Positions 18,845 to 42,581 of a stretch of DNA of 64,000 nt are shown in pieces. Position numbers and translations under genes: made by a program. The stretch covers positions 355,173-419,172 of the forward strand of contig CAVURJ010000001.1 in NCBI GenBank assembly GCA_963743885.1, read 5' to 3'. The DNA comes from Candidatus Moraniibacteriota bacterium. Lineage in GTDB: Bacteria > Patescibacteriota > Minisyncoccia > Moranbacterales > UBA1568. Numbering within the stretch: the first letter of the stretch is position 1; the number at the start of each line of letters is the position of its first letter. The notes beneath the pieces were generated by a model. That model worked only from the letters and a program-made list of their open reading frames with translations, was not told the DNA's origin and ran no database searches.

Positions 18845-19243
18845 TCATTTCTCTCCCTTCCTTGTGTTGGGAGAGTTTTGTTTCAAGAGTTGTCCGTTCC
18901 AGCCGCCGAGCATCCGCCCGATTTCGTCGATCTTTTCGGAAAGTGCGATATACTTCTTGGTATCGACCGATTTCGTTTCCCAGAGGACGAGCAGGAGAAC
19001 TTTGAGTGTGTCGACTTTTCGTATCGCATGGCGGACATAGGGCATCTTTTCCTGCGGCGAGAGGAAAGCGGCTGCCGAGACGCATTCGATGCACTCTATG
19101 AAAATATGATCGATTCGTTGGCCGAGAGAATAGCGATGCGTCTTGGGAAGCGAAGAAAGAATATTGTACCAGAATAAATAAGCATCCTTTATCTTATGCA
19201 AGACAGGCACAAGTCTGGGGGGGGTAACTCCAGGAAGCATCAT
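18845..19243 (-). CDS. avd: DGR accessory variability determinant (Avd), four-helix-bundle protein (23S rRNA-intervening-sequence protein family)
   Basis: 132 aa; pattern Y..L....Y.IL..LPKTHRYSLG.RI....I...E....A...............K.....LL.L...........S.KIDEIGRMLGGW matches Bordetella phage bAvd and other DGR Avd proteins. Confidence 0.8.
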   Translation of the reverse strand: MMLPGVTPPRLVPVLHKIKDAYLFWYNILSSLPKTHRYSLGQRIDHIFIECIECVSAAAFLSPQEKMPYVRHAIRKVDTLKVLLLVLWETKSVDTKKYIALSEKIDEIGRMLGGWNGQLLKQNSPNTRKGEK

Positions 19244-20347
19244 AGCAAAACAAAAAAGAAATTAGCGGCTGCCTATGATGATATCATATCTCTTGAGAAT
19301 CTTCTCGATGCCTGGAAAGAATTCCTGAAGGGGAAAAAGAACAAGCAGGATGTCCAGGCATTCGAAGCGCGTCTCATGGACAACCTCTTCTCGCTCCATG
19401 AAGACCTGAAGCACAAAACCTACGAGCACGGTGGCTATCAGGCTTTCAAGATAAGTGACCCGAAGCCGCGCGATATCCACAAAGCCTCGGTACGTGACCG
19501 GCTCATCCATCACGCCATCTACCGAATCCTCTATCCGTTCTTCGATACGCTCTTTATCGCCGATTCATATTCTTGCCGCGAAGAGAAAGGCACACACCGG
19601 GCACTTGATCGTTTCCAGGCCTTCGCTCGGAAAGTCTCGTGCAATCACACAAAGACCGCCTGGGTGCTCAAGTGTGATATCCGGAAGTTTTTCGCGTCGA
19701 TTGATCAGGATATTCTACTTAGTATCTTACAGGAGCGGATACCGGACCGGGACATACTGTGGCTTTTGGAGAAAGTGATAGGAAGTTTTTCCTCTACCTG
19801 TTGTCATCCCGGGCTCCCGCCCGTACCGAACCGGTGCGTTCGGGCGGGTGACCCGGGATCCAGAGGGGATGGATTCCGGCTCGGGGGCCGGAATGACAGA
19901 GAAGAGGATTCTATGAGAAAAAATGGGCTCCCACTTGGCAACCTCACTTCGCAGCTTCTCGTGAATATCTACATGAACGAATTCGACCAGTTCGTGAAGC
20001 ATCGCCTGAAAGCGAAATACTCTATACGTTACGCAGATGATTTTGTCTTGTTTTCAAGAAACCACGAAGAGCTTGATGGCTGGCTTATCCTCATCACGGA
20101 GTTCCTTTGGGAACAGCTTCATCTGAAGCTCCACCCAAACAAGGTCTCTATCCAGACAGTCGCTTCGGGTGTGGACTTCCTTGGGTGGACACATTTTCCT
20201 GATCATCGGGTGCTCCGAGGAGCGACGAAGCGGAGGATGTTCCGGAAAGCGAGTGAGAAGAATGTCGCTTCATATATTGGATTGCTCTCGCATGGGAATG
20301 GGTACCGACTCCAAAAGATGTTGGCAGAGCGTTTTGGTGTGGAGTGA
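19196..20347 (+). CDS. DGR reverse transcriptase
   Basis: VRDRLIHHAIYRIL...FIADSYSCREEKGTHRALDRFQ is nearly collinear with Bordetella bRT; YADDFVLF catalytic motif; LGNLTSQ motif 4 (the I/LGxxxSQ DGR signature); ATG start overlaps the divergent avd start by about 48 nt. Confidence 0.9.
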   Translation: MQDRHKSGGGNSRKHHSKTKKKLAAAYDDIISLENLLDAWKEFLKGKKNKQDVQAFEARLMDNLFSLHEDLKHKTYEHGGYQAFKISDPKPRDIHKASVRDRLIHHAIYRILYPFFDTLFIADSYSCREEKGTHRALDRFQAFARKVSCNHTKTAWVLKCDIRKFFASIDQDILLSILQERIPDRDILWLLEKVIGSFSSTCCHPGLPPVPNRCVRAGDPGSRGDGFRLGGRNDREEDSMRKNGLPLGNLTSQLLVNIYMNEFDQFVKHRLKAKYSIRYADDFVLFSRNHEELDGWLILITEFLWEQLHLKLHPNKVSIQTVASGVDFLGWTHFPDHRVLRGATKRRMFRKASEKNVASYIGLLSHGNGYRLQKMLAERFGVE

Positions 20348-31540: not shown

Positions 31541-31543
31541 ACG

Positions 31544-31622
31544 AAGTGAGTGAAACGAAAGTTTGCTTTCGTTTCCGAACGCAGTGCTGGTAAAATCAGG
31601 TATAATACTCCGCGGCTTGCCC
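31544..31622 (+). repeat. conserved intergenic element R2 (hairpins plus tgGTAAAAT box)
   Basis: aligns to 12564..12656 with compensatory hairpin changes. Confidence 0.6.
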
Positions 31623-31761
31623 GCCTAGCCGGTGAGTCTAGCCGCAGAAAGAAATGAACATCGGTTCGTTACCTGTTGTTATCCCGCTGCCTTCCGACAG
31701 CGTTTTTTGTTTCTCTTTCTTTATGGTACAATTATAGCAAATCGCATATGAAAAAAACAGC

Positions 31762-32943
31762 ATGTTCGGGAGAGGTTTTTCATTTTTTCAAGGAGCGGCC
31801 GAATCTCGCGCAACGAGTGGGGGGTCGATAGGGTTTATAGACGCAGACGTGTCCAAGGAAAAGATTTCTAGTGGTAATGGGGAGATCACTTTTTTTGGTA
31901 CGCCGCAATCTTCTATGCCGATAGCAGAAGAGTTTATGGGGCCCGCTGGGGCGAAAATTATACAGTGGCCGGTTGTTGATGATGCGGAAGCGGAGAAGAG
32001 GATGGAGGAGTTGAGGGAGGCACATCATTCGGATGTCTTATTGAAGGGCGTTGAAGACACTGGGGTAGCCGAGTCGGTTGCTATCCCTGTCAGGGAGGAA
32101 GTATCGTCTGTGGATGCGACCGTTGTTCCGGCGGAGGAGGCTGTAGCGTCGTCAGAATTGGTTTCTCAGGCAGTATCGGGGAATGTTGCGAAAGTTTTAG
32201 TGCATGTTGAAGGAGAGGCGGAAGCGCCTGAGATACAGACTGAGGCACAGAAGCAGTTCGAGGCGCTTGAAGAGGAGATTGAACAGGAGATCAATGAGAT
32301 AGACAAGATGATCAAGAGTCATCGGAAGACGGTCCAGATGCGCGCGATGAACAAATGGACGCATGAGGAGGAATGGACCAAGCTAACTGCGGCGCTCGAT
32401 CAGGCGAAGGCGGATATGGATGCAGCTATCGATCTTGCTAATGGAAATGGACATGAGCAGGAGGCGCTTGATCAGCTCAAGAAGATCAAAGCGAGTCTCG
32501 ATATCAGTGTGCTTGAGGTCAAGGTGCTGCCGGAGCTTGAAGAAGAAACAGTGGATGTAAAAGTGCCTGTTGCTGAGAAGAAAAAGAAACAAGGGGAGGG
32601 TCCGAAGAAGAAGCCAGAGGGAAAAAAGAAGGCGGTTGCGAAGCAGGAAACGCGCGAGTCGGAAGAGGTAGTATACGAGAGACTTGAGCGGATGGCTGAG
32701 GATGATGGCGCGTATCATACGGTTTTGGGCGCTATCGCGGCCGGTCTGCGTACGATGAAGGAGACTGTTCCGGGTATCGAGAAGAGGAAGGATGAGCTTT
32801 CGGGTCGTATCGCGGAAGCGATCGCTCTGAAACTGGAGCATCCTATCGTTGCGACCGGAGAGCGGCTCGGCTGGTCCGCGGATGAGACTGGATTGTTCGC
32901 GCGGGAGATTGTCCGGAAGGGTATCGAGAAATTTCTGAAATAA
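31762..32943 (+). CDS. hypothetical acidic coiled-coil protein
   Basis: 393-aa ORF; first gene of a tightly packed plus-strand block 31762..39166. Confidence 0.55.
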   Translation: MFGRGFSFFQGAAESRATSGGSIGFIDADVSKEKISSGNGEITFFGTPQSSMPIAEEFMGPAGAKIIQWPVVDDAEAEKRMEELREAHHSDVLLKGVEDTGVAESVAIPVREEVSSVDATVVPAEEAVASSELVSQAVSGNVAKVLVHVEGEAEAPEIQTEAQKQFEALEEEIEQEINEIDKMIKSHRKTVQMRAMNKWTHEEEWTKLTAALDQAKADMDAAIDLANGNGHEQEALDQLKKIKASLDISVLEVKVLPELEEETVDVKVPVAEKKKKQGEGPKKKPEGKKKAVAKQETRESEEVVYERLERMAEDDGAYHTVLGAIAAGLRTMKETVPGIEKRKDELSGRIAEAIALKLEHPIVATGERLGWSADETGLFAREIVRKGIEKFLK

Positions 32944-32964
32944 GATTAAGAAGGAGGGATATCT

Positions 32965-33543
32965 ATGACGAAGGAAGGGATGAATCATGCGCCTACTGAT
33001 GCCGAGATAGATGCGGCCATCCTCAAGGGAGCAGAGGTCGCTGGCGAAGAGGCACGTAAGGGTCTTGGATTGCCGGCGGAGGCACCGGTTGTTGGGGCTG
33101 TTCCGGAAGCAAAGCCGGCTGTTGTTGAAGCTGCTCCGAAGACTGAGAAGACGCCGGAGAAGGTTCGGAGTCCCAAGAACAGCAAATCGACTTCTCCTAT
33201 GAGTGCGACCGGAGCTGGGAGAAATAGGAGCGGTCGCGTCGGGAAGAAGGTCGCTAAGAAGATATCTCAAGAAATTGCTGCTGAGACCGGTTCCGGCACG
33301 ATCGTCGAAGAGGAGAATCCGGAAGCGAGGCCTGTCAGCGCGGGATTTCCGGAATGGGGCGTTTCGCGGGATTCGGTGTATGAATCGCGGATGATTATCC
33401 CGATGGTTCAGAATGAGGTTTTGGTGGAAGCGGTCTCTTCCGGGATGCGAGAAGAGAAAGCGCCGGCCGCGGTTGCTGAGGCGGTTGCTGATTCGGTTTC
33501 AGATGGCGGTCGCTTCGGATGCTGGTGCGGCTGGATCTGGTGA
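32965..33543 (+). CDS. hypothetical protein (Ala/Pro/Glu-rich)
   Basis: 192 aa; its TGA stop overlaps the ATG of the next gene (TGAgATG). Confidence 0.5.
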   Translation: MTKEGMNHAPTDAEIDAAILKGAEVAGEEARKGLGLPAEAPVVGAVPEAKPAVVEAAPKTEKTPEKVRSPKNSKSTSPMSATGAGRNRSGRVGKKVAKKISQEIAAETGSGTIVEEENPEARPVSAGFPEWGVSRDSVYESRMIIPMVQNEVLVEAVSSGMREEKAPAAVAEAVADSVSDGGRFGCWCGWIW

Positions 33544-33544
33544 G

Positions 33545-35719
33545 ATGCAGCCTCATAAAGCTTGGAAGGTGTCGGCGCAGGAGGGGTGGTATAAGGAAGA
33601 GGAGGGGCATGGTCCGGAAGGCGGTGATGAGGATGAATTCGTAGTGAAGAATCCGAGGATAGCGATCCCTGGCAGTTCGGAGTGGAGTGAGGTGATGGCA
33701 GCGTATGGTCGAACTGCGGATACCGCGTCCGGGGAGGCTGAAAGAGGGACGATCGACAAATTAAAAGATGAGGTCGCCGGATTGCGAGCGAAATACGCGT
33801 CGAGAATGTATGAACATAGCCGATTGGCAGCGAATCTGAAGTCATCGAAGATCGGAAGATTTTTCAGTCTTGGGGATGCTGATGAGGCTGATCTTGAATA
33901 CTGGAGGAGGGAATATGAAGAGAAGCTCGCAGCGCTCCGTGAGGCGGAGCTCGAGGAGATCAAAGGATCTCGTCTCAAGGGACAGGAGCTCAAGGAGGCC
34001 ATGGCAGGATTGCTCCGTGCATCAAAGGTGGACGAAGTGCTTTCGCTGATCAGTGATCGGGATACGTATCGGCTTGAAGGAAATAAATGGTCAGATAAGG
34101 TTTATAATACTTTTCGGTCAGTAGGTGAGTGGTATAACAAGGTACCGAAGAGGTATAAGATCATGGCTGGCGTAGCAATCGGATCGCTTGCGCTTGGTAC
34201 GGCTGCAATGGGCGGGGTGGCTTTGGCGGGTGGAGTGAAAATTGCACGGCGATTGGTCTCTGGCGCCGGTTTTGCGGTAGCTATTGATGCCGCGCTTGAT
34301 GCGAAGATGGAAGAACGCTTTAAGAAGCAGGCAGAATATGAGATTGAAGTGGAGCTCGATCAGATGTTTGGTTCGGTCGAGCCGTCCACAGAAGGTAAGT
34401 CGTCTTCTGAGCGCTCGCAGGAAGAGATGATGCAGATGTTCGAGGAACGTTTGCAAGCTGCTTCTGGCGGGGTGACGCTCGTATTTGAGGACCAACTTTT
34501 CAAGCGGAAGTTGAATGGCGTCGCAGGTGTCGCTGCCGGTACGATCGCAGGTTTCGCAGGTTCGGCGGCAATGGAATGGTTCAAGGAGAGCGGTGCGGCG
34601 GATGCGACACGCGATATTCTTTTTGGGCAGGATGCCGAGCCAATCCAGATGACTGATGCGGAATTGGCTGCTCGGACGGCAGCGGCTCGCGATATGGCTG
34701 AGGAATATGGGAGTGCCTCGCCGGAGCGACAGCTCGATATCCGGAATGCCACGAGTATGACTGATGGCCAGCTCTCTGCTTTGGCGCGGACGATCGAGAT
34801 AGAAGGCGGGCATATTGTTCCGGGATCAGTCAGTGCTGTGGAAATAGTCTCAGCTGGACCGAATGAGATTGTAAAAAGCCTGCTTTTAGAGCATGAATTG
34901 ACAACAGCCGATGCTAAAAGAGGGTTGTGGGGCGTGCTCGAATCGCGTTTGCCGGCCGATATGTCGGGAGCGGATAAGGCGCGCACGATTGCGGCATTGG
35001 AGAATGCGATCAGCCTGAAGGTTGGGCAGATGTCACCAGAAGAGCGGCTGGCAGCTGGTTTCCGGGGCAACAATATCGGTGAGGTATTCGCTGGCGATAC
35101 GCTTCATCTCGATAGGGTGCTATCGGTCGATGAAGTGCGGACTGCGATGGAAGGCGGGCATGCCTCTGGTATTGGATCGGCGGTTGCGGAGCATCATGTA
35201 GCCGGATCGGCCGGGATTGAGAAGCATGCCGGTGTTGTCGCGCATGATCACGGCGGTCCCGCTGTTCCTGATCGCGGTGCTGCCGCGGCGATTGCTGAGC
35301 CGGTTACGGAAGCGGCGGATATCGAGACGATGTCCCAGGCACTTCGCCCGCGTGTCGATAGCTGGTTTGACCAGATCTTCCGTGCTGAGAATGAGATGCT
35401 GGGATCGGGGCGTGATTGGGTTGTCGATCGCGAACGGATCAGCAAGATCAGCATCCGTGATATGATGCGTGATGCCGCATTGTATGGGCGGGGAGCGGTT
35501 TCGGGGTATCGGACAGGACTTTCCGTCGAGCAGATTAAGAATTTCATCCAGTTTTTCAAAGAAGTCGGTGATGGTGTTAAGGATCAGGATGCTATGACGG
35601 AGATCATCTATGCCACGGTAGTGCCAGGGAAGGATATGACGGTGGCGGAATATCTTGAGAGGGTTGCGCCACTCGTCAAAAAGAGCCAGCATCTCGGGCC
35701 CTTCACGACGCCCGTCTAG
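33545..35719 (+). CDS. large hypothetical protein with coiled-coil and internal hydrophobic segments
   Basis: start moved to the ATG at 33545 (ORF track 33413); Gly/Ala-rich TM-like stretch GVAIGSLALGTAAMGGVALAGG. Confidence 0.55.
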   Translation: MQPHKAWKVSAQEGWYKEEEGHGPEGGDEDEFVVKNPRIAIPGSSEWSEVMAAYGRTADTASGEAERGTIDKLKDEVAGLRAKYASRMYEHSRLAANLKSSKIGRFFSLGDADEADLEYWRREYEEKLAALREAELEEIKGSRLKGQELKEAMAGLLRASKVDEVLSLISDRDTYRLEGNKWSDKVYNTFRSVGEWYNKVPKRYKIMAGVAIGSLALGTAAMGGVALAGGVKIARRLVSGAGFAVAIDAALDAKMEERFKKQAEYEIEVELDQMFGSVEPSTEGKSSSERSQEEMMQMFEERLQAASGGVTLVFEDQLFKRKLNGVAGVAAGTIAGFAGSAAMEWFKESGAADATRDILFGQDAEPIQMTDAELAARTAAARDMAEEYGSASPERQLDIRNATSMTDGQLSALARTIEIEGGHIVPGSVSAVEIVSAGPNEIVKSLLLEHELTTADAKRGLWGVLESRLPADMSGADKARTIAALENAISLKVGQMSPEERLAAGFRGNNIGEVFAGDTLHLDRVLSVDEVRTAMEGGHASGIGSAVAEHHVAGSAGIEKHAGVVAHDHGGPAVPDRGAAAAIAEPVTEAADIETMSQALRPRVDSWFDQIFRAENEMLGSGRDWVVDRERISKISIRDMMRDAALYGRGAVSGYRTGLSVEQIKNFIQFFKEVGDGVKDQDAMTEIIYATVVPGKDMTVAEYLERVAPLVKKSQHLGPFTTPV

Positions 35720-35749
35720 GTATAACTAATTACCAATTACTAAAGACAT

Positions 35750-36061
35750 ATGATCGATCAGCAAGCGCTTACGCAGGAGCTTATCGCCGCCTTCCATTTA
35801 GAAGGTATCCCGAAAGAGAAGCAGGAGGCGCTCATCGCCAAGATGGGCGAGGCTATCCTGAAGCGTATCTTTCTTGAGACGATGGAGAAAATCGGCGACG
35901 AGGGCGTGAAGGAATATGAAACTCTTCTTGACCGGCAGGCAGGAGAGCAGGAAATTAGCGCGTTTTTCGAGGCGAAGATTCCGGGGTATGATATATTCGT
36001 GGAGGATACGGTGAAGAAGTTCAAGGAGGATATGCTTCAGGGTATGGCAGCAGGTAACTAA
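35750..36061 (+). CDS. hypothetical small protein
   Basis: 103-aa ORF in the operon. Confidence 0.5.
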   Translation: MIDQQALTQELIAAFHLEGIPKEKQEALIAKMGEAILKRIFLETMEKIGDEGVKEYETLLDRQAGEQEISAFFEAKIPGYDIFVEDTVKKFKEDMLQGMAAGN

Positions 36062-36158
36062 CAACTAACAACTGATAACTAACGACACGCATAGACAACG
36101 GCAGGGCTCGTTTCATGATTTCTTCCGTTGTAAGTTGTGGGTTGTAGGTTTATATAGT

Positions 36159-36572
36159 ATGGCCGAAGAGATCATAGAACCAGCAGGTATCGAGACAGAG
36201 CCGGCAGCAGCGTCGGTAGAGAAGGAGGCATCCCATGATATCCCGTCCGCAGAGCGGATAGAGTTTTATGAAACGGGGCATGAGCGTGCTGAAGCGAAAT
36301 ACAAGAAGATTCTGTCGAAGGTGGTGGCGCTGAAGTCCGCATCTGCTTCGGATGATGATGCAGCGGCTGACGTGAGTAGTCTGAGCGACATGGACGATGA
36401 GGAGGGGAAGGTGAAGAAGCTTATCGATCTGGCCCAGACGAAGAGCGTCGAGCATGCCGTACGGGTCGCCCGTTCACTTGGGGACTATTACGTCCTCGAT
36501 CGGATGCATGACGAGCTCGCTGGAAAATTTTATGACGGCCTGGTTGAGAAGGGCCTGATCGAAAAAGAATAA
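36159..36572 (+). CDS. hypothetical acidic protein
   Basis: start chosen at MAEEII within ORF 36135. Confidence 0.45.
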   Translation: MAEEIIEPAGIETEPAAASVEKEASHDIPSAERIEFYETGHERAEAKYKKILSKVVALKSASASDDDAAADVSSLSDMDDEEGKVKKLIDLAQTKSVEHAVRVARSLGDYYVLDRMHDELAGKFYDGLVEKGLIEKE

Positions 36573-36646
36573 TCGAAACAGATCCTTTGCTTGATGATTG
36601 GTGCTTGGTTCTTGGGATTTGTTTTGTTTCAGAAAAAACAAAACTT

Positions 36647-39166
36647 ATGGAGGGATTCGACTATAATACGGTATTCGTGCCGCTGGCCTGGGTGCTTGCC
36701 TGTGTAGCGCTCGGCAGCGGAATATTTCTGATTCTCAGGAGCTTTTTTCGTTTCCGCTACCAGGTGAACCAGTCGATTGCAATGGATATCGAGCTGGTCC
36801 GTGTCGTGAAGCCGGTGATTCAGTCGGAAGTTCAGACGTCGAAAGAGGCTTGGAAGGAAGAAGTGCTTGTCATGGAGAAACTGTTTGCGGCTATGGCATC
36901 CTTCAAACGGAGCGCGAGTCCGATGAAGCGGTTTTTCTATGAGACGCCGACAATCGTGCTTGAGATGGCTCAGCCGGCGGGAAGTGAGGAGATACTCTTT
37001 TTCATCGCGATGCCGAAGAAGTTCCGTGATGGTATCGAGAAGCAGGTACATAGCTTTTTTCCTGGCGCGGTCATCGAGAAGATGGCTGATTATACGATTT
37101 TCTCACCAGGGAGCGCGACCGCGCTCTCGATGCTTGGGCTCAAGTCCGATTCAGCATTGCCGCTTCGTACATATAATGCGTTCGGGACTGATTCGCTCGA
37201 TGAGTTCGCGAGCGCGATGAGTAAGCTTGATACCAGCGATGAAGGCGCGGCAATCCAAGTCGTCTTAGCTCCGTGCCATGAGAACGGATGGCGCAAGCAT
37301 GCGAAAGAGATCGCTCGGCGCATGCAGCAGGGGAAACGGCTCAAGGAAGCCGCGGAACATCCGAGTTCATCCGGGTCAGCATTTCTTACAGGTGTCGCTA
37401 AGGGTGTGGTAAAAGAAGCGGCTGGAGCAGCGACTTTCGGTGTCGTCGGAAAGAAGTCTGATTCTACCAAGCCAGATGCTGAAGAGAAAGTTGTCTCTCT
37501 CACTCCCGAAGAGCAGGAAACGCTCAAGGCGATCGAGACGAAAGCGGCAAGCCCGGCTTTCCGGGTGAATATTCGGTTGCTTACGTCTGCTCGGACGGAG
37601 GCGCGTGCGGAAGAGCTTCTTGGTCAGCTTGAGACGGCGTTCACGCAGTTTGATCACCCGGAAGTGAATACGCTCCAGGTGAAGCGTCGAGTGAAGAAGA
37701 AGCAGGCTGCCTTTGATTATATCTTCCGCAATTTCGACGAAGAGATGTCGATGACACTGTCTTCTGAGGAGATTGCAAGCATCTTCCATTTCCCGATATC
37801 GGTGACAGAGACGCCCAAGATCAAGTGGCTCAAGTCGGGTGCTGCCGCTCCGCCAATCAATATTCCGAAGGAAGGCCTCCTGCTCGGCTATAACGAGTAT
37901 CGCGGCATCAAGTCGGAGATCCGCATCACGGATAATGACCGTCGTCGACATATGTATGTCATCGGTCAGACCGGTGTCGGCAAGTCGAACTATCTCCAGG
38001 AGATGGCTAAGAAGGATGCTCAGGCCGGCAAAGGATTCTGTTTTATTGATCCGCATGGCGATGCTATCGAAGATATCCTAACTGCTATTCCGAAAGAGCG
38101 CGCGGAAGATGTGATTATTTTCGACCCATCGGACATGGCTCGGCCAATCGGTATCAATATGCTTGAATACGATCCGGCGCATCCGGAACAGAAGACGTTC
38201 GTCATCAACGAGATGATCGGCATCTTCGACCAGCTCTACGATATGAAGGCGACCGGCGGACCGATGTTCGAGCAGTATATGCGCAATGCCATGCTACTCA
38301 TCATGGAGGATCCGGAGAGCGGATCGACGCTGCTTGAGATCTCTAAGGTGCTCTCGGATGAGGATTTCCGCCGGTACAAGCTCTCGAAGTGCACGAACCC
38401 GATTGTCCGCGACTTCTGGATCAAGGAGGCGGAGAAGGCCGGCGGTGAGGCGGCGCTCGCCAATATGGTGCCGTACATTACGTCCAAACTCACGACGTTC
38501 ATTTCGAACGACATGATGCGTCCAATCATTGCGCAGCAGAAGAGCGCGCTTGATTTTCGCGCCATCATGGACGGCCGGAAGATCCTCCTTATCAACCTTT
38601 CCAAGGGCAAGATTGGCGAGATTAATGCCAAACTGCTCGGTATGGTCGTCGTCGGCAAGATCCTCATGGCAGCACTTTCCCGCGTCGATATGCCAGAAGC
38701 TGAGCGTGAGGATTTCTATCTCTATCTTGATGAATTCCAGAACGTGACGACGAATTCGATTGCGCAGATCCTCTCTGAGGCGCGCAAGTACCATCTCTGC
38801 CTCATCTTGGCGCACCAGTTCATCGGGCAGCTCAAAGAGGAGATCTCCAAGGCAGTCTTCGGCAACGTGGGATCGCTCTGCTCGTTCCGCGTCGGTCCGG
38901 AAGACGCTGAGTTCCTTGAGAAGCAGTTTGAGCCGGTCTTCACGGCGAATGATATTGTCAATGTTGATAACTATAACTTCTTCGCGCGGCTGCTCATGAA
39001 CAACGAGTTGACCAAGCCGTTCAATATGAAGACATATCCGCCGACCCATGGCGATCAGGAGGTGGCCAATGCGTTCAAGGAGCTTTCCCGTCTGCGGTAC
39101 GGCCGCGATACCGATATCGTTAATCGGGAGATCATGAGCCGCATCCGTCTCGCTGAAGGAGCGTAG
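36647..39166 (+). CDS. membrane-anchored P-loop ATPase of the VirD4/TraD-HerA/FtsK superfamily (type IV secretion coupling-protein-like)
   Basis: N-terminal TM helix, Walker A GQTGVGKS, Walker B region LYLDEFQN, then ARKYHLCLILAHQ, typical of TraG/TraD/DUF87 ATPases. Confidence 0.6.
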   Translation: MEGFDYNTVFVPLAWVLACVALGSGIFLILRSFFRFRYQVNQSIAMDIELVRVVKPVIQSEVQTSKEAWKEEVLVMEKLFAAMASFKRSASPMKRFFYETPTIVLEMAQPAGSEEILFFIAMPKKFRDGIEKQVHSFFPGAVIEKMADYTIFSPGSATALSMLGLKSDSALPLRTYNAFGTDSLDEFASAMSKLDTSDEGAAIQVVLAPCHENGWRKHAKEIARRMQQGKRLKEAAEHPSSSGSAFLTGVAKGVVKEAAGAATFGVVGKKSDSTKPDAEEKVVSLTPEEQETLKAIETKAASPAFRVNIRLLTSARTEARAEELLGQLETAFTQFDHPEVNTLQVKRRVKKKQAAFDYIFRNFDEEMSMTLSSEEIASIFHFPISVTETPKIKWLKSGAAAPPINIPKEGLLLGYNEYRGIKSEIRITDNDRRRHMYVIGQTGVGKSNYLQEMAKKDAQAGKGFCFIDPHGDAIEDILTAIPKERAEDVIIFDPSDMARPIGINMLEYDPAHPEQKTFVINEMIGIFDQLYDMKATGGPMFEQYMRNAMLLIMEDPESGSTLLEISKVLSDEDFRRYKLSKCTNPIVRDFWIKEAEKAGGEAALANMVPYITSKLTTFISNDMMRPIIAQQKSALDFRAIMDGRKILLINLSKGKIGEINAKLLGMVVVGKILMAALSRVDMPEAEREDFYLYLDEFQNVTTNSIAQILSEARKYHLCLILAHQFIGQLKEEISKAVFGNVGSLCSFRVGPEDAEFLEKQFEPVFTANDIVNVDNYNFFARLLMNNELTKPFNMKTYPPTHGDQEVANAFKELSRLRYGRDTDIVNREIMSRIRLAEGA

Positions 39167-39241
39167 TGGAAAGATGAGATATCAATCGGGTATGAAAAAG
39201 CCTCTCCGAGTGGAGAGGCTTTTGGTTTTCAGCGGGTTTTC

Positions 39242-41854
39242 TTATGGCTTTAGGGAGAAGAGTGTATCTTCGGCGGCGATGAGGAGTTCGTCAGTCTCCT
39301 CGTTCCAAGTGATCGATCGAGCGCCCTTCAGCTGTTCTCCGAAGTATTGTGTCTCGATGGCACCGTCCTTGTTCCAGATGATGATGCGCCCTGAGACAGT
39401 GTCGAGGGCGTAGGCGGCGCTCACATCAGAACGGCTCGCGATGCTCGTGATAGAGAGAGGGGTGTGAGTCGTTTCGAGGTCTTTATCGGGACGGCCGCGG
39501 AAGAATCTCTTGAGAGATGCCCCATCAGACGAAGCGAAGATGCTTTCGCTGACTGCCATGCGGGCATGTTCGTCTGTTGTCAGGCTCTCACGGAGCCAGG
39601 ATGCGGGCGTTCCGAATCCGCCATCGGCGCGGGGGAAGCGATAGATCTGCCCGCTCATTCCGTCGAGAGTGTAGAGGTAGGTGAGATAGGTGCCGATGCT
39701 CTGTACGCGGGCTCCTTGCGGGAGGGTAAGGGTATTCTCAGCGAAGGTTCGGCTGATCGGGCTCCAGGCGAAGAGCTTTCCTTGGTCGGTATAGAGGAAG
39801 ATGAGCCGTAAGTCATCCATAGGTGTAGAGAGGACGACCTGCCCACTTCCTGAAGGGATCTGGTATTCCCGGTCTCCGGAGATATCGTAGATACTCTGGG
39901 AAGAGATGGCATATGCTTGGCCGTGGAGCGTTACGGCATCCGTGATGCCGTTTCGTCGCAAGATCGTTGTCAGAGCGTTGAGCTGCTTTGCATTCTTTTC
40001 TTCGACATAGGCCGGTGCAGCAGCTGTTTCGGCTGGTTCTGGTGCTGGCGCGGATACTGATTCCGGGGTGTCATTAGAAAGCAGAGCGAAGGTTCCGGCC
40101 GCTCCGAGGAGCGCCAGGGATGATCCGAGGACAATCAAGCGTCGTTTCGGCGGGAGCGCAGATAGGGCTGAGACGGACTTTTTTGCGGTTTTCAGGGTAT
40201 TTCGGAGAAGCTGTCCACCAAGCTTGGTCGTCGTCGATGCGACTGAAGCAGCGACCGGTCGGACGGATCGGAATACGGATGAGACGATAAGGACAGCCTT
40301 TTCGGAAATCGGCGTGACGCTGATAACTGCTGTCTCGTGGACCTCGATAGTAGCTGTTTCTGGACTTGGTTGCGCGGATTGGGCGTGTTCCTTTCGGTAG
40401 AAGGCGGCGAGCTTTTCGCGTATGAAAAGAGGGATCTCGACTTCTTCGGGTATCGGCGCTGTCGGAGGAGCGATGGGAGTGGTAGGTGACGGTTGTTCTG
40501 GTGCCGGACGGATCGCGTCGAGAGGCGGCGCTACTGGAGGGGTGGTCGCGGCTATCGGAGGCTTCGTTTCTATGGTGAGCGCCCGCTGCTCGTCTTGTTC
40601 TTTCCTGATTCGCTTGCGGTTTGCCAAGCACCGTCGGAATGCTGCAAACATCCGGTCAGCTGCTGATTGCATCGACTCGGTCGATTCAGCGAGAGCGATT
40701 GCGGATTGTTTCCGCATCTTGCGGAACCATTTTGATTGCGTTCCGACTGATGCGCGGAGCGAAGCGCCGATTTCTTGAGAGAAGAGAGAGAGACGTTCGA
40801 GAGCAGGGTGGGCAGCCGGTTCTATAGGATCGTTTCCTTGTACATAGATGTGCCCGGTTTTGGAATCTATATATTCGCTTTGCGGCTCTTCTGCTGCCGA
40901 GGCATCTTTTTCTGTTTCTGCTTGCGCTTCAGAGGCTTTTTTAGAAAAAGCCGACTGACTGAAGACATTTTGGATAGTGGAGGCTGCCCGGACCGGCTCA
41001 GGCTTCTTTTCTGGAGCTTTTTTCGGAGCTTGGGTGCCTTCCTTGATATGCATGACGATCGTTCCGGCCATGTCGAGCTCGTTGACGAGAGCGGTTTTCA
41101 GGAATTGATCGAACTGCCCTTCGTCCATGCGGAGCGCGTTCTTGATGAGATCCTCCTGCGAGAAGAGCCTGAGGAGTTCTGGAGAAGAGAAAATGATGCG
41201 ATCGCCAGCAAGCAGCCGGCCGCTGGAGATCTCTATGAATGTCTTGATAGGATGGACCGATGCCTCGTCGGACGCCAATCCTTCGCCGATGTCAGTCAGC
41301 GTATCATTGCGGAGAAGAAGGATGCTGCCTTGGCCGGTGGCGGAAAAATGCATGCCGCCTTTCTCGAAGGCGCCAATGACACCATGGAAGCTGCCGAGCC
41401 AGGCGACGTTGCCGTGCTTGACGAGCTCGGCCAATGCGAGGTTCACCTTATGGAGAGCCGCTTCGAAGCTTTCGACGGCGCCACGTCGTGGGTTGCCGAA
41501 ATATTCCTTCTTAGCAACTGAGGCTAGGAAGTTGACGATGTACGCGGAATCCTCGCTCCGCTCGTCTACTTCGAAGACACCGACAAGCGTCCCGAGGTCG
41601 AGGGAGGAGACGTTCTCGCCGCTCTGGATGAATGTCTTCACGAACGGCTCAAAAGATCGTCCGCGAGCGACGAGGATTTCTGTGGGGAATTTTTCAAGCA
41701 CGGTCGATTGGCCGTTTTTTTCCGAAGATTTCTTTTCGTGCATAGCGGGCATTTCCGGTGCCGGACCGATTTTCGTATCCAGCGGAACGCGCAGAAAAAT
41801 TGGATTTCTGCCGGTCATCCGTTCTCTCATAGTATAGCATACAAAAGCTCTCAT
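39242..41854 (-). CDS. large hypothetical membrane protein (N-terminal domain with weak PP2C/SpoIIE-like features, Pro-rich linker, TM segment, C-terminal beta-rich domain)
   Basis: 870-aa ORF; domain assignment is low confidence. Confidence 0.5.
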   Translation of the reverse strand: MRAFVCYTMRERMTGRNPIFLRVPLDTKIGPAPEMPAMHEKKSSEKNGQSTVLEKFPTEILVARGRSFEPFVKTFIQSGENVSSLDLGTLVGVFEVDERSEDSAYIVNFLASVAKKEYFGNPRRGAVESFEAALHKVNLALAELVKHGNVAWLGSFHGVIGAFEKGGMHFSATGQGSILLLRNDTLTDIGEGLASDEASVHPIKTFIEISSGRLLAGDRIIFSSPELLRLFSQEDLIKNALRMDEGQFDQFLKTALVNELDMAGTIVMHIKEGTQAPKKAPEKKPEPVRAASTIQNVFSQSAFSKKASEAQAETEKDASAAEEPQSEYIDSKTGHIYVQGNDPIEPAAHPALERLSLFSQEIGASLRASVGTQSKWFRKMRKQSAIALAESTESMQSAADRMFAAFRRCLANRKRIRKEQDEQRALTIETKPPIAATTPPVAPPLDAIRPAPEQPSPTTPIAPPTAPIPEEVEIPLFIREKLAAFYRKEHAQSAQPSPETATIEVHETAVISVTPISEKAVLIVSSVFRSVRPVAASVASTTTKLGGQLLRNTLKTAKKSVSALSALPPKRRLIVLGSSLALLGAAGTFALLSNDTPESVSAPAPEPAETAAAPAYVEEKNAKQLNALTTILRRNGITDAVTLHGQAYAISSQSIYDISGDREYQIPSGSGQVVLSTPMDDLRLIFLYTDQGKLFAWSPISRTFAENTLTLPQGARVQSIGTYLTYLYTLDGMSGQIYRFPRADGGFGTPASWLRESLTTDEHARMAVSESIFASSDGASLKRFFRGRPDKDLETTHTPLSITSIASRSDVSAAYALDTVSGRIIIWNKDGAIETQYFGEQLKGARSITWNEETDELLIAAEDTLFSLKP

Positions 41855-41975: not shown

Positions 41976-42581
41976 ATGTCGCTTGCATTGTTTGATACGC
42001 TGTTTGGATCGAAAGCCCGTGCCCGCCTCATCAGATTCTTCATTCTTAATCCCGGTGCTGAATTTACGGCAGCTCAGGTCGCTGAGAGGACGCTTGTTTC
42101 TAGGACGGAAGTTTCGAGAGAGCTCGCCCGACTGGTCAAGATGAAACTTATCTTTGAGCGGGCACGCAAGAATCGGAAGCATTTCATTGTGAATGAGGAT
42201 TTCCCGTTCTTCATCGAGTTGAAGAGCCTGGTGTCGAAGCTCAATGTCCATGCTCAGTCGCAGGTGTTCCGAAAATTGAAGATCATTGGCGAAGTGAAGC
42301 TCATTCTGATCAGCGGCCTCTTCCTCAACTATCCCAAGAGCAAGGTCGACATGATCCTGGTCGTGAACAATGTTAACCGGACCAAGCTCAAGCATGCGAT
42401 CGCTCATCTTGAGGCTGAGGTCGGTAAGGAGATTCGCTTCATGCTTATGAACAACGAGGAGCTGCACTATCGGCTCAATATGCTCGACCGTTTCTTCATC
42501 GAGTTCCTTGAAGCGCCGTATGAGGAAGTGACCAACAAAGTGCCAGAGCTCAAGCGGTTCGTGGCAGGGCTCAAGAAGTAG
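41976..42581 (+). CDS. hypothetical protein with N-terminal winged-HTH-like segment
   Basis: 201 aa; LIRFFILNPGAEFTAAQVAERTLVSRTEVSRELARL resembles ArsR/MarR-type HTH. Confidence 0.45.
   Translation: MSLALFDTLFGSKARARLIRFFILNPGAEFTAAQVAERTLVSRTEVSRELARLVKMKLIFERARKNRKHFIVNEDFPFFIELKSLVSKLNVHAQSQVFRKLKIIGEVKLILISGLFLNYPKSKVDMILVVNNVNRTKLKHAIAHLEAEVGKEIRFMLMNNEELHYRLNMLDRFFIEFLEAPYEEVTNKVPELKRFVAGLKK

Follow-up and report, generated by a model that had tools for sequence, protein, structure and literature searches.

That Patescibacteria carry orphan genes resembling type IV coupling proteins (T4CPs) is already published. A survey counted 5,713 VirD4-like homologues in 2,918 of 3,035 patescibacterial genomes, only 148 of them near virB4, and its authors suggest that these homologues have been exapted for another function (Quinonero-Coronel et al. 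2025, PMC12102498). The patescibacterial type IV secretion system (T4SS) is essential in S. epibionticum, and its gene cluster is without recognisable coupling and relaxase proteins (PMC10633639). The locus described here lies on contig CAVURJ010000001.1 (GCA_963743885.1) of a Candidatus Moraniibacteriota bacterium, in a stretch of 64,000 nucleotides (positions 355,173 to 419,172 of the forward strand) which is called the window and to which all coordinates without a locus number refer. Its centre is an ATPase of 839 amino acids (aa) with a domain of the family DUF8128. An initial annotation had read the surrounding 10 kb, six plus-strand genes and a seventh gene on the minus strand, as a possible envelope-spanning secretion or DNA-transfer module. 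What stands of this reading is a conserved core of three genes and 3.4 kb; the 10-kb machine does not, and the block is not a self-contained or complete secretion system.

The ATPase resembles the VirD4-like homologues of the survey in being chromosomal, in occurring in nearly every genome, almost never beside virB4 and without a relaxase, and in having the same T4CP signatures in Pfam; the survey's hits may include this DUF8128 family. The survey (PMC12102498) counts hidden Markov model hits only and does not deal with a VirB4-like N-domain, a 137-aa partner and its fusion to the ATPase, a DUF5663 protein or relatives on Bacillus plasmids and phages. These four subjects were not found in the searchable literature, the first as the assignment of a VirB4 fold to DUF8128, and no papers on DUF8128 or DUF5663 were found.

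Architecture and relatives of the ATPase

The core genes and the main parts of the ATPase were located by listing of open reading frames (ORFs) and translation, and for the DUF5663 gene by ORF listing and Pfam:

35750-36061, plus strand: 103-aa DUF5663 gene
36159-36572, plus strand: 137-aa gene
36647-39166, plus strand: ATPase gene, 839 aa
36677-36733, plus strand: N-terminal transmembrane (TM) anchor of the ATPase, residues 11-29, hydropathy 2.28, within a continuous helix of residues 6-44 in the structural model
37964-37987, plus strand: Walker A motif GQTGVGKS, residues 440-447
38720-38743, plus strand: Walker B region LYLDEFQN, residues 692-699, followed by an ARKY..L..AHQ motif

The ATPase is built up by a TM helix (residues 11-29), a DUF8128 domain that resembles the N-terminal domain of VirB4 (approximately residues 46-380), a linker and a P-loop motor of VirB4/VirD4 type (approximately residues 411-839). 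It is a hybrid with the architecture of VirB4 (N-domain and motor), a motor that is coupling-protein-like by sequence and one N-terminal membrane helix. The initial annotation gave its length as 840 aa, one residue too many, and was right about the gene, the helix and the motifs GQTGVGKS, LYLDEFQN and ARKYHLCLILAHQ, all of which are present in the translation. It was also right about the family of secretion ATPases, as Pfam TrwB_AAD_bind, TraG-D_C and DUF87 are above their cutoffs, but it overlooked the VirB4-type fold of the N-terminal 370 aa.

The motor has a nucleotide-binding P-loop domain of VirD4/TrwB type, and the LYLDEFQN region aligns to the Walker B region of TrwB. Residues G440, G443, G445 and K446 of Walker A are invariant among 36 and 80 diverse homologues, as are D695, E696, N699, R713, K714 and Q724; Q728 is likewise invariant among the 80. 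The closest solved relatives by sequence are TrwB and DotL. The best structural matches are the VirB4 C-terminal domain 4ag5 (29.0), the DptH/DndH C-domain (27.3), TrwB (26.8) and HerA (24.7), followed at lower scores by DotL (23.8), Cag-beta (21.0), EccC (approximately 18) and FtsK (16.7). DUF8128 (PF26449) covers the N-terminal ~370 aa in the precomputed Pfam annotation of the identical protein and of all listed homologues, and in the locus tables; the local copy of Pfam did not report it.

The ATPase does not reach the curated models of any described class. The best NCBIfam model for T4CPs, TIGR03743, gives 29.4 bits against a cutoff of 366, conju_CD1115 gives 27.8 against 250, and the rest are lower. 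Pfam CagE_TrbE_VirB and AAA_10 do not match, and NCBIfam VirB4_plasma gives 11 bits against a cutoff of 590. The ATPase is related to both VirB4 and VirD4 and would work like them, yet by sequence it falls outside the curated membership of both, and it is best filed as a DUF8128 branch of the VirB4/T4CP clade. An FtsK_SpoIIIE motor domain, an N-terminus with several TM helices and a gamma domain were not found, nor was the combination of N-terminal HAS-barrel, DUF87-type motor and NurA or other nuclease partner that characterises HerA. The ATPase is not FtsK. The initial annotation had named two outcomes that would tell against it, an ATPase of FtsK/SpoIIIE type and neighbours without conserved co-occurrence, and the first of these is settled in its favour.

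Coupling proteins usually have two helices in the N-terminal TM domain. In TrwB, VirD4, TraD and DotL this two-helix domain is placed directly on the motor, whereas in the present ATPase a single helix is followed by a soluble VirB4-type domain of approximately 340 aa, no relaxase or T4SS genes are found nearby and the curated T4CP models remain far below their cutoffs. The ATPase differs from VirB4, TrwK and TrbE in the missing family matches given above and in its neighbours, among which Pfam and NCBIfam detect no VirB3, VirB6 or VirB8.

The ATPase family is large, with 21,446 clusters of 50% identity at E<0.001 and 5,579 at E<1e-30, and its members are mostly 800-930 aa long and homologous over their full length. 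A protein 100% identical to the ATPase is encoded on a contig of 652 kb. More than 100 clusters are at least 69% identical to the ATPase, and those with a source name are Candidatus Moranbacteria or Patescibacteria. One genome per species was scanned, the 80 best ATPase loci were returned and all their ORFs were extracted. These loci are mostly titled Patescibacteria (Moran-, Uhr-, Falkow-, Komeili-, Nomura-, Taylor-, Azam-, Niyogi- and Portnoybacteria, Paceibacterota), and a minority titled as other taxa have the same synteny, so all 80 look patescibacterial. Among the latter, 'MAG TPA_asm' records titled uncultured Bdellovibrionales, Gammaproteobacteria or Candidatus Saccharibacteria have synteny of Moranbacteria or Paceibacteria type and ATPases that are 64-72% identical; the taxon labels of these records (L003-L006, L018, L019, L021, L023 and others) look unreliable.

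Distant homologues of the ATPase, with 22-27% identity, were found in 241 plasmid records (Streptomyces, Bacillus, haloarchaea and Sulfolobus) and 33 phage records. The 'DUF87 domain-containing' ATPases on Tcp-type plasmids of Bacillus and Shouchella (NZ_CP012476.1, NZ_CP154917.1) correspond to it over the full length, with E of approximately 1e-23 for a profile of the N-domain and 1e-49 for one of the C-domain. They differ in sequence (approximately 25% identity), in being plasmid-borne, in having no 137-aa or DUF5663 partner and in having a C-terminal extension. On plasmids of approximately 27-31 kb in Shouchella clausii and Bacillus subtilis, the homologue (883-885 aa) has a relaxase-like Replic_Relax gene immediately downstream, and beyond this come TcpC, TcpE and an AAA_10 VirB4 encoded by a gene of its own. 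This is where a coupling protein is classically found. The profiles of both domains match these proteins of plasmids, phages and haloarchaea (E 1e-12 to 1e-50) but do not match the AAA_10 VirB4 of the same Bacillus plasmids. The ATPase family is therefore a branch of its own, which joins a VirB4 fold at the front to a motor and a genomic role that are both T4CP-like.

A tblastn search gave full-length homologues with approximately 22% identity in 31 Bacillus phages (SP-10, Goe26, phage G gp156, JL, Shanette and the 031MP004 group), and the PHROG family phrog_5156 matches the ATPase over its full length (E 5e-90). SP-10 BS_SP10_203, phage G gp156 and 031MP004 gp51 align over 81-91% of the query and, like the patescibacterial ATPase, have a small gene directly upstream. 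Unlike the acidic soluble partners in Patescibacteria, these upstream genes encode small membrane proteins, and the setting is one of replication and recombination. The small membrane proteins, 031MP004 gp50 (L089 5560-5952) and SP-10 gp201 and gp202 (L088 4992-5864), do not match the 137-aa profile. The score of gp50 is just under the cutoff for the TrbC/VirB2 pilin (26.7 against 27.9 bits) and also just under that for T4SS_pilin; together with the adjoining ATPase homologue it gives the appearance of a pilin-like gene paired with a VirB4-like ATPase on a phage.

The three-gene core

Iterative profiles of each window protein were run against the ORFs of 82 fetched loci and the window segment, 83 loci in all. 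The 137-aa family was the sole broadly conserved neighbour of the ATPase. The 137-aa protein is acidic, with a conserved C-terminal helical domain of approximately 65 aa and the motif KGV.HAV.VA..L.DPY.LD.FHD.L, and belongs to no Pfam family; the same is true of several proteins of the 137-aa and ABY1 types. Its gene is directly upstream of the ATPase gene in 27 loci, the window included, and fused to it in another 28, together 55 of the 75 loci with upstream sequence. The profile was built solely from stand-alone copies and still matches the N-terminal extensions of the fused proteins. In all 28 the fused domain stops where the ATPase profile starts, and in these Paceibacteria-type homologues it takes the place of the TM anchor. 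The family was recovered again in loci fetched independently by way of DUF5663. A fusion of this type strongly indicates joint action of the two products, and from it the 137-aa domain can be assigned to the cytoplasmic side. The 137-aa protein is the dedicated partner of the ATPase and its putative adaptor.

The gene in the same position in ABY1-type loci is represented by the following feature:

L017 9375-9899: ~170-aa ABY1-type upstream protein, found also in L018-L021, L023, L027, L029, L030, L045, L064, L065 and L077

This protein has a disordered N-terminus and the C-terminal motif IPGVNKFFLEQEAKIKTD, and belongs to no Pfam family. Relationships between the 137-aa family and DUF5663, between the 137-aa family and the ABY1-type protein, and between the ABY1-type protein and DUF5663 were all rejected with hhalign.

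According to the initial annotation none of the partners had an obvious annotation, but the acidic, helical 103-aa protein is Pfam DUF5663 (PF18908; 25.0 bits against a cutoff of 23.7), a family carried by all 120 listed homologues. DUF5663 is found near the ATPase in 13 fetched loci besides the window, loci outside Moranbacteria included, and in L022, L068 and L076 the order is permuted to ATPase, large protein, DUF5663. Of five distant DUF5663 genes that were looked up, four have a DUF8128 ATPase no more than 2.4 kb away, and here too the ATPase is accompanied by or fused to a 137-aa-type protein. The five DUF5663 proteins are at most 33% identical to that of the window, and at the low end BLASTP gives no significant alignment with it. 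The arrangement of large-protein, DUF5663 and 439-aa genes in L085 and L087 is also found in L086 (JAYEHC010000097.1, 5193-12328), where the 137-aa gene and the ATPase are missing and a 447-aa TM protein and an 82-aa TM protein are found in their place.

On two Moranbacteria contigs the gene order is PMT_2, PMT_2, variable large proteins, DUF5663, a gene of approximately 140 aa, ATPase, a reversed gene of approximately 800 aa, a 201-aa helix-turn-helix gene and RmuC. Identity to the Moranbacteria relatives is 84% for the 201-aa gene, 70% for the ATPase, 56-63% for DUF5663, 47-56% for the 137-aa gene, 37-43% for the 870-aa gene and approximately 25% for the 724-aa gene; the 393-aa gene is similar only in its C-terminal tail and the 192-aa gene has no counterpart. 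Beyond Moranbacteria the conserved part is restricted to 35750-39166 (DUF5663, the 137-aa gene and the ATPase), with relatives of the 724-aa gene recurring loosely. Co-occurrence across genomes, the second outcome named by the initial annotation, accordingly holds in deep lineages for part of the neighbourhood and not for the 393-, 192- and 870-aa genes. The most compact form is seen in L063 and L084, where FtsQ(POTRA), DUF5663, the 137-aa gene and the ATPase follow each other; in the window FtsQ lies 4.3 kb upstream. In five loci outside Moranbacteria (L033, L035, L039, L041 and L044) a divergent PMT_2 glycosyltransferase gene is directly upstream of the pair of 137-aa gene and ATPase, and the window agrees with this except that the large acidic genes and DUF5663 are interposed.

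The setting in the window is one of housekeeping genes: SecY, MurD, MurA, glycosyltransferases, FtsQ, two PMT_2 glycosyltransferases, RmuC, RF-1 and a tRNA cluster, the last with five genes at 52964-54184 on the plus strand. The GC content is even over the region, and the ATPase module is chromosomal and vertically inherited.

Lineage-variable genes and flanking sequences

The remaining features of the block, the genes likewise taken from ORF listing and translation, are:

31724-31732, plus strand: extended -10-like motif TGGTACAAT, 30 nt before the first ATG (31762)
31762-32943, plus strand: 393-aa gene
32965-33543, plus strand: 192-aa ORF
33545-35719, plus strand: 724-aa gene, alternative start at 33413 possible (ORF listing)
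39196-39223: bidirectional intrinsic terminator, 12-bp stem with an A-run before and a U-run after
39242-41854, minus strand: 870-aa gene

The six plus-strand genes are tightly spaced, as described in the initial annotation, and all partners of the ATPase in the window are acidic (isoelectric points, pI, of 4.6-5.3), which also agrees with it. A hydropathy scan gives TM segments in three of the block proteins. The 393-, 192- and 870-aa genes appear from sequence comparison to be lineage-specific.

The 724-aa protein has a charged N-terminal region, a Gly/Ala-rich hydrophobic segment at residues 210-228, a second near residue 345 and a variable C-terminus; the two segments are those that the initial annotation had pointed out. 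Its profile matches in eight fetched loci besides the window, Paceibacterota locus L076 among them, and proteins of similar architecture adjoin DUF5663 and the ATPase in L012, L022, L068 and L083-L087. DUF5663 is repeatedly accompanied by large charged proteins, some with Gly/Ala-rich TM segments and some without, whose evolution is too fast for them to count as one family. The 724-aa and 870-aa proteins have no Pfam match, and the 393-aa protein (pI 4.9, 20% D+E, no TM segment) belongs to no Pfam or NCBIfam family. It was found in two of the 83 loci, and only its C-terminal ~105 aa match one Moranbacteria relative.

No homologue of the 192-aa ORF was found in any related locus searched. Its stop is 1 nt before the ATG of the 724-aa gene, in the sequence TGAgATG at 33541-33547 that had been reported as an overlap, and in relatives of the 724-aa protein the N-terminus is longer by 100-320 residues. 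For these reasons the two ORFs may derive from a single gene interrupted by a frameshift, whether genuine or introduced in assembly. A BLAST comparison of the 192-aa ORF with the N-termini of the 724-aa relatives gave no significant match, and the ORF may be either a lineage-specific gene or a detached N-terminal part of the 724-aa gene.

The 870-aa gene had been described as divergent. It is convergent with the ATPase gene, and the terminator between them is common to both and marks the 3' end of the plus-strand unit; the fold of 39160-39250 has z = -2.3, and the terminator hairpin is kept in the centroid structure. Homologues of the 870-aa protein align from M38 onward, so the protein is probably 833 aa long. 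It is a membrane protein, as previously proposed, with one TM segment (574-592) between a conserved N-terminal cytoplasmic domain with a Pro-rich linker and a C-terminal domain that has a weak match to NHL repeats in PDB (E 0.0014). Searches in PADLOC and PHROG gave no match. The gene is absent from all loci examined outside Moranbacteria; together with RmuC and genes further downstream it adjoins the ATPase within Moranbacteria only, where the whole region is syntenic. As a separate transcription unit with this restricted neighbourhood, it falls outside the conserved module.

The 201-aa gene (41976-42581, plus strand) is the best-conserved gene of the region and encodes a basic protein (pI 10.1) with a MarR-like winged helix, which matches the PADLOC phage-defence candidate PDC-M05A over its full length (E 2e-22). 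It is linked to the ATPase in nine Moranbacteria-type loci and the single outlier L042.

Upstream of the block, TGGTACAAT is found in three copies in the window against 0.22 expected. The copy at 31724-31732 is probably the promoter-like element that the initial annotation put before the block under the name 'R2', which was left undefined there. Another copy lies at 19163-19171, just upstream of a reverse transcriptase gene and on the opposite strand. A generic sigma-70 scan gave sites no more common than expected by chance; candidate internal promoters of the plus-strand unit lie at 36092-36119 and 36544-36573. The 383-aa reverse transcriptase (19196-20347, plus strand; Pfam RVT_1, E 5e-25) is placed among housekeeping genes and could be part of a retron, a diversity-generating retroelement or a group II intron. 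The 220-nt gap at 31541-31761 has a TATAAT at 31601-31606 and, approximately 80 nt downstream, a terminator-like hairpin with a T-run (31685-31702), and could hold a short transcript or leader. Its fold has z = -1.5 and it has no match in Rfam; none of the related loci has an exact copy of its promoter-proximal 38 nt (31598-31635).

Interpretation of the module

The best explanation, and a fairly probable one, is that the locus holds a chromosomal, vertically inherited T4SS-related ATPase module typical of Paceibacteria/ABY1-type Patescibacteria, that is, a domesticated T4SS-type ATPase with dedicated adaptors. Several observations weigh against it. All NCBIfam models for T4CP, VirB4, HerA and Ced proteins stay far below their cutoffs, and VirB4-type T4SS genes are absent from the window. 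In the 13 ABY1-type loci (Uhr-, Falkow- and Komeilibacteria) the unrelated ~170-aa protein is found directly upstream of the ATPase instead of the 137-aa protein. The link to DUF5663 is asymmetric, as DUF5663 is found within 10 kb in only eight of 41 ATPase loci with full flanks. A TM helix is missing from the fused, Paceibacteria-type homologues, and anchoring in the membrane is therefore not a general feature. The replication and recombination genes around the phage homologues agree equally with secretion and with a part in DNA handling. VirB4 is found in fewer genomes than the T4CP homologues are, and in S. epibionticum, a member of another class, the T4CP homologue is reported not to be essential for epibiotic growth (PMC12102498).

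The original proposal, in which the six plus-strand genes and the 870-aa gene together form one autonomous envelope-spanning secretion or DNA-transfer machine, draws on the close packing of genes on one strand with a 1-nt gap in one pair, on three TM-bearing proteins, on an ATPase from a family of secretion motors and on large proteins, charged or with TM hairpins, that turn up again close to the ATPase in other lineages. It is nevertheless quite unlikely. Conservation outside Moranbacteria is limited to three of the genes, homologues of the 393- and 192-aa genes are few or absent, and the 870-aa gene is convergent behind a terminator and syntenic only in a class where the entire neighbourhood is. 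A polytopic channel protein, VirB6, VirB8, VirB1, a pilin and a relaxase were not detectable in the block with Pfam and NCBIfam, and many homologues of the ATPase lack the TM helix. It is somewhat less improbable, but still unlikely, that the ATPase is a housekeeping DNA translocase acting like FtsK in chromosome segregation or DNA handling at division, with the small proteins as regulators. Coupling proteins and FtsK belong to related kinds of DNA pump. The ATPase family occurs almost universally and by vertical descent, and at 70% identity the ATPase is much more conserved than the genes beside it, at 25-60%. The proximity of FtsQ in L063, L084 and the window, the setting of the phage homologues and the second-best structural match, to the DptH/DndH C-domain of a DNA-acting system, point in the same direction, whereas the FtsK-specific domains are missing and FtsK has the lowest of the structural scores.

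The plasmid and phage homologues, the relaxase-like neighbour on Bacillus plasmids and the full-length match to phrog_5156 would also suit a remnant or cargo of a mobile element (integrative and conjugative element, plasmid or prophage) with the ATPase as its conjugative coupling protein. Pfam and NCBIfam scans of the block found no integrase, relaxase or replication gene, which argues that it is not a mobile element, and no relaxase or mating-pair-formation genes were found in the block or the scanned ORFs of the window. With uniform GC content, and with the same housekeeping setting in many Moranbacteria at approximately 70% identity as against 22-27% to plasmid and phage homologues, such an origin is very improbable. 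An anti-phage defence system based on a HerA/DptH-like ATPase is just as hard to credit: a nuclease, Sir2 or other effector partner is missing, defence systems are patchy whereas this ATPase gene is core and highly conserved, the PADLOC matches of the ATPase are weak and cover the generic P-loop region only, and the link to the 201-aa gene is confined to the few loci given above.

In the preferred reading, that of a domesticated T4SS-type ATPase, the protein would be anchored in the membrane by its single N-terminal helix with the remainder in the cytoplasm. By analogy with VirB4, TrwB and HerA it might form a hexameric membrane ring that moves or extracts a polymer, DNA or protein, at the expense of ATP, and the VirB4-like N-domain might serve as a docking surface or platform. 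The 137-aa protein would bind the ATPase as a dedicated adaptor; in half of the lineages it is fused to the N-terminal end and replaces the membrane anchor. By analogy, the small, acidic and helical partners resemble the adaptors of coupling proteins, IcmS/IcmW on DotL for example. Accessory or cargo proteins that vary between lineages may be represented by DUF5663 and by the fast-evolving large proteins that are charged or have a TM hairpin (724 aa and 393 aa); again by analogy, the large charged ones could be cargo or membrane partners. The most likely role would be that of a coupling or energising ATPase for a patescibacterial T4SS encoded elsewhere without a coupling protein beside it, or else that of a stand-alone translocase. 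The coupling role is plausible because the S. epibionticum T4SS is essential yet its cluster lacks a recognisable coupling protein (PMC10633639). A more far-reaching version can be put forward tentatively, as a possibility rather than an expectation: the DUF8128 ATPase, the 137-aa adaptor and DUF5663 would make up either an independent translocon or the coupling complex that the essential patescibacterial T4SS is missing, the neighbouring large proteins would be cargo or host-interface effectors, and the family would be a surviving VirB4-VirD4 intermediate shared with Bacillus plasmids and phages.

Most of the 10-kb block that was first singled out is lineage-specific filler round the 3.4-kb conserved core. 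The structural assignment of DUF8128 and the three-gene core turn three families of 'unknown function' into testable hypotheses, and they bear on the evolutionary relation between VirB4 and the coupling proteins. Patescibacteria depend on host cells, and in the one species tested the T4SS is essential but has no known coupling protein or substrate. A near-universal ATPase with a VirB4-type docking domain, a VirD4-type motor and a partner that is often fused to it is a concrete candidate for the missing coupling protein, or may be a separate translocase of DNA or protein.

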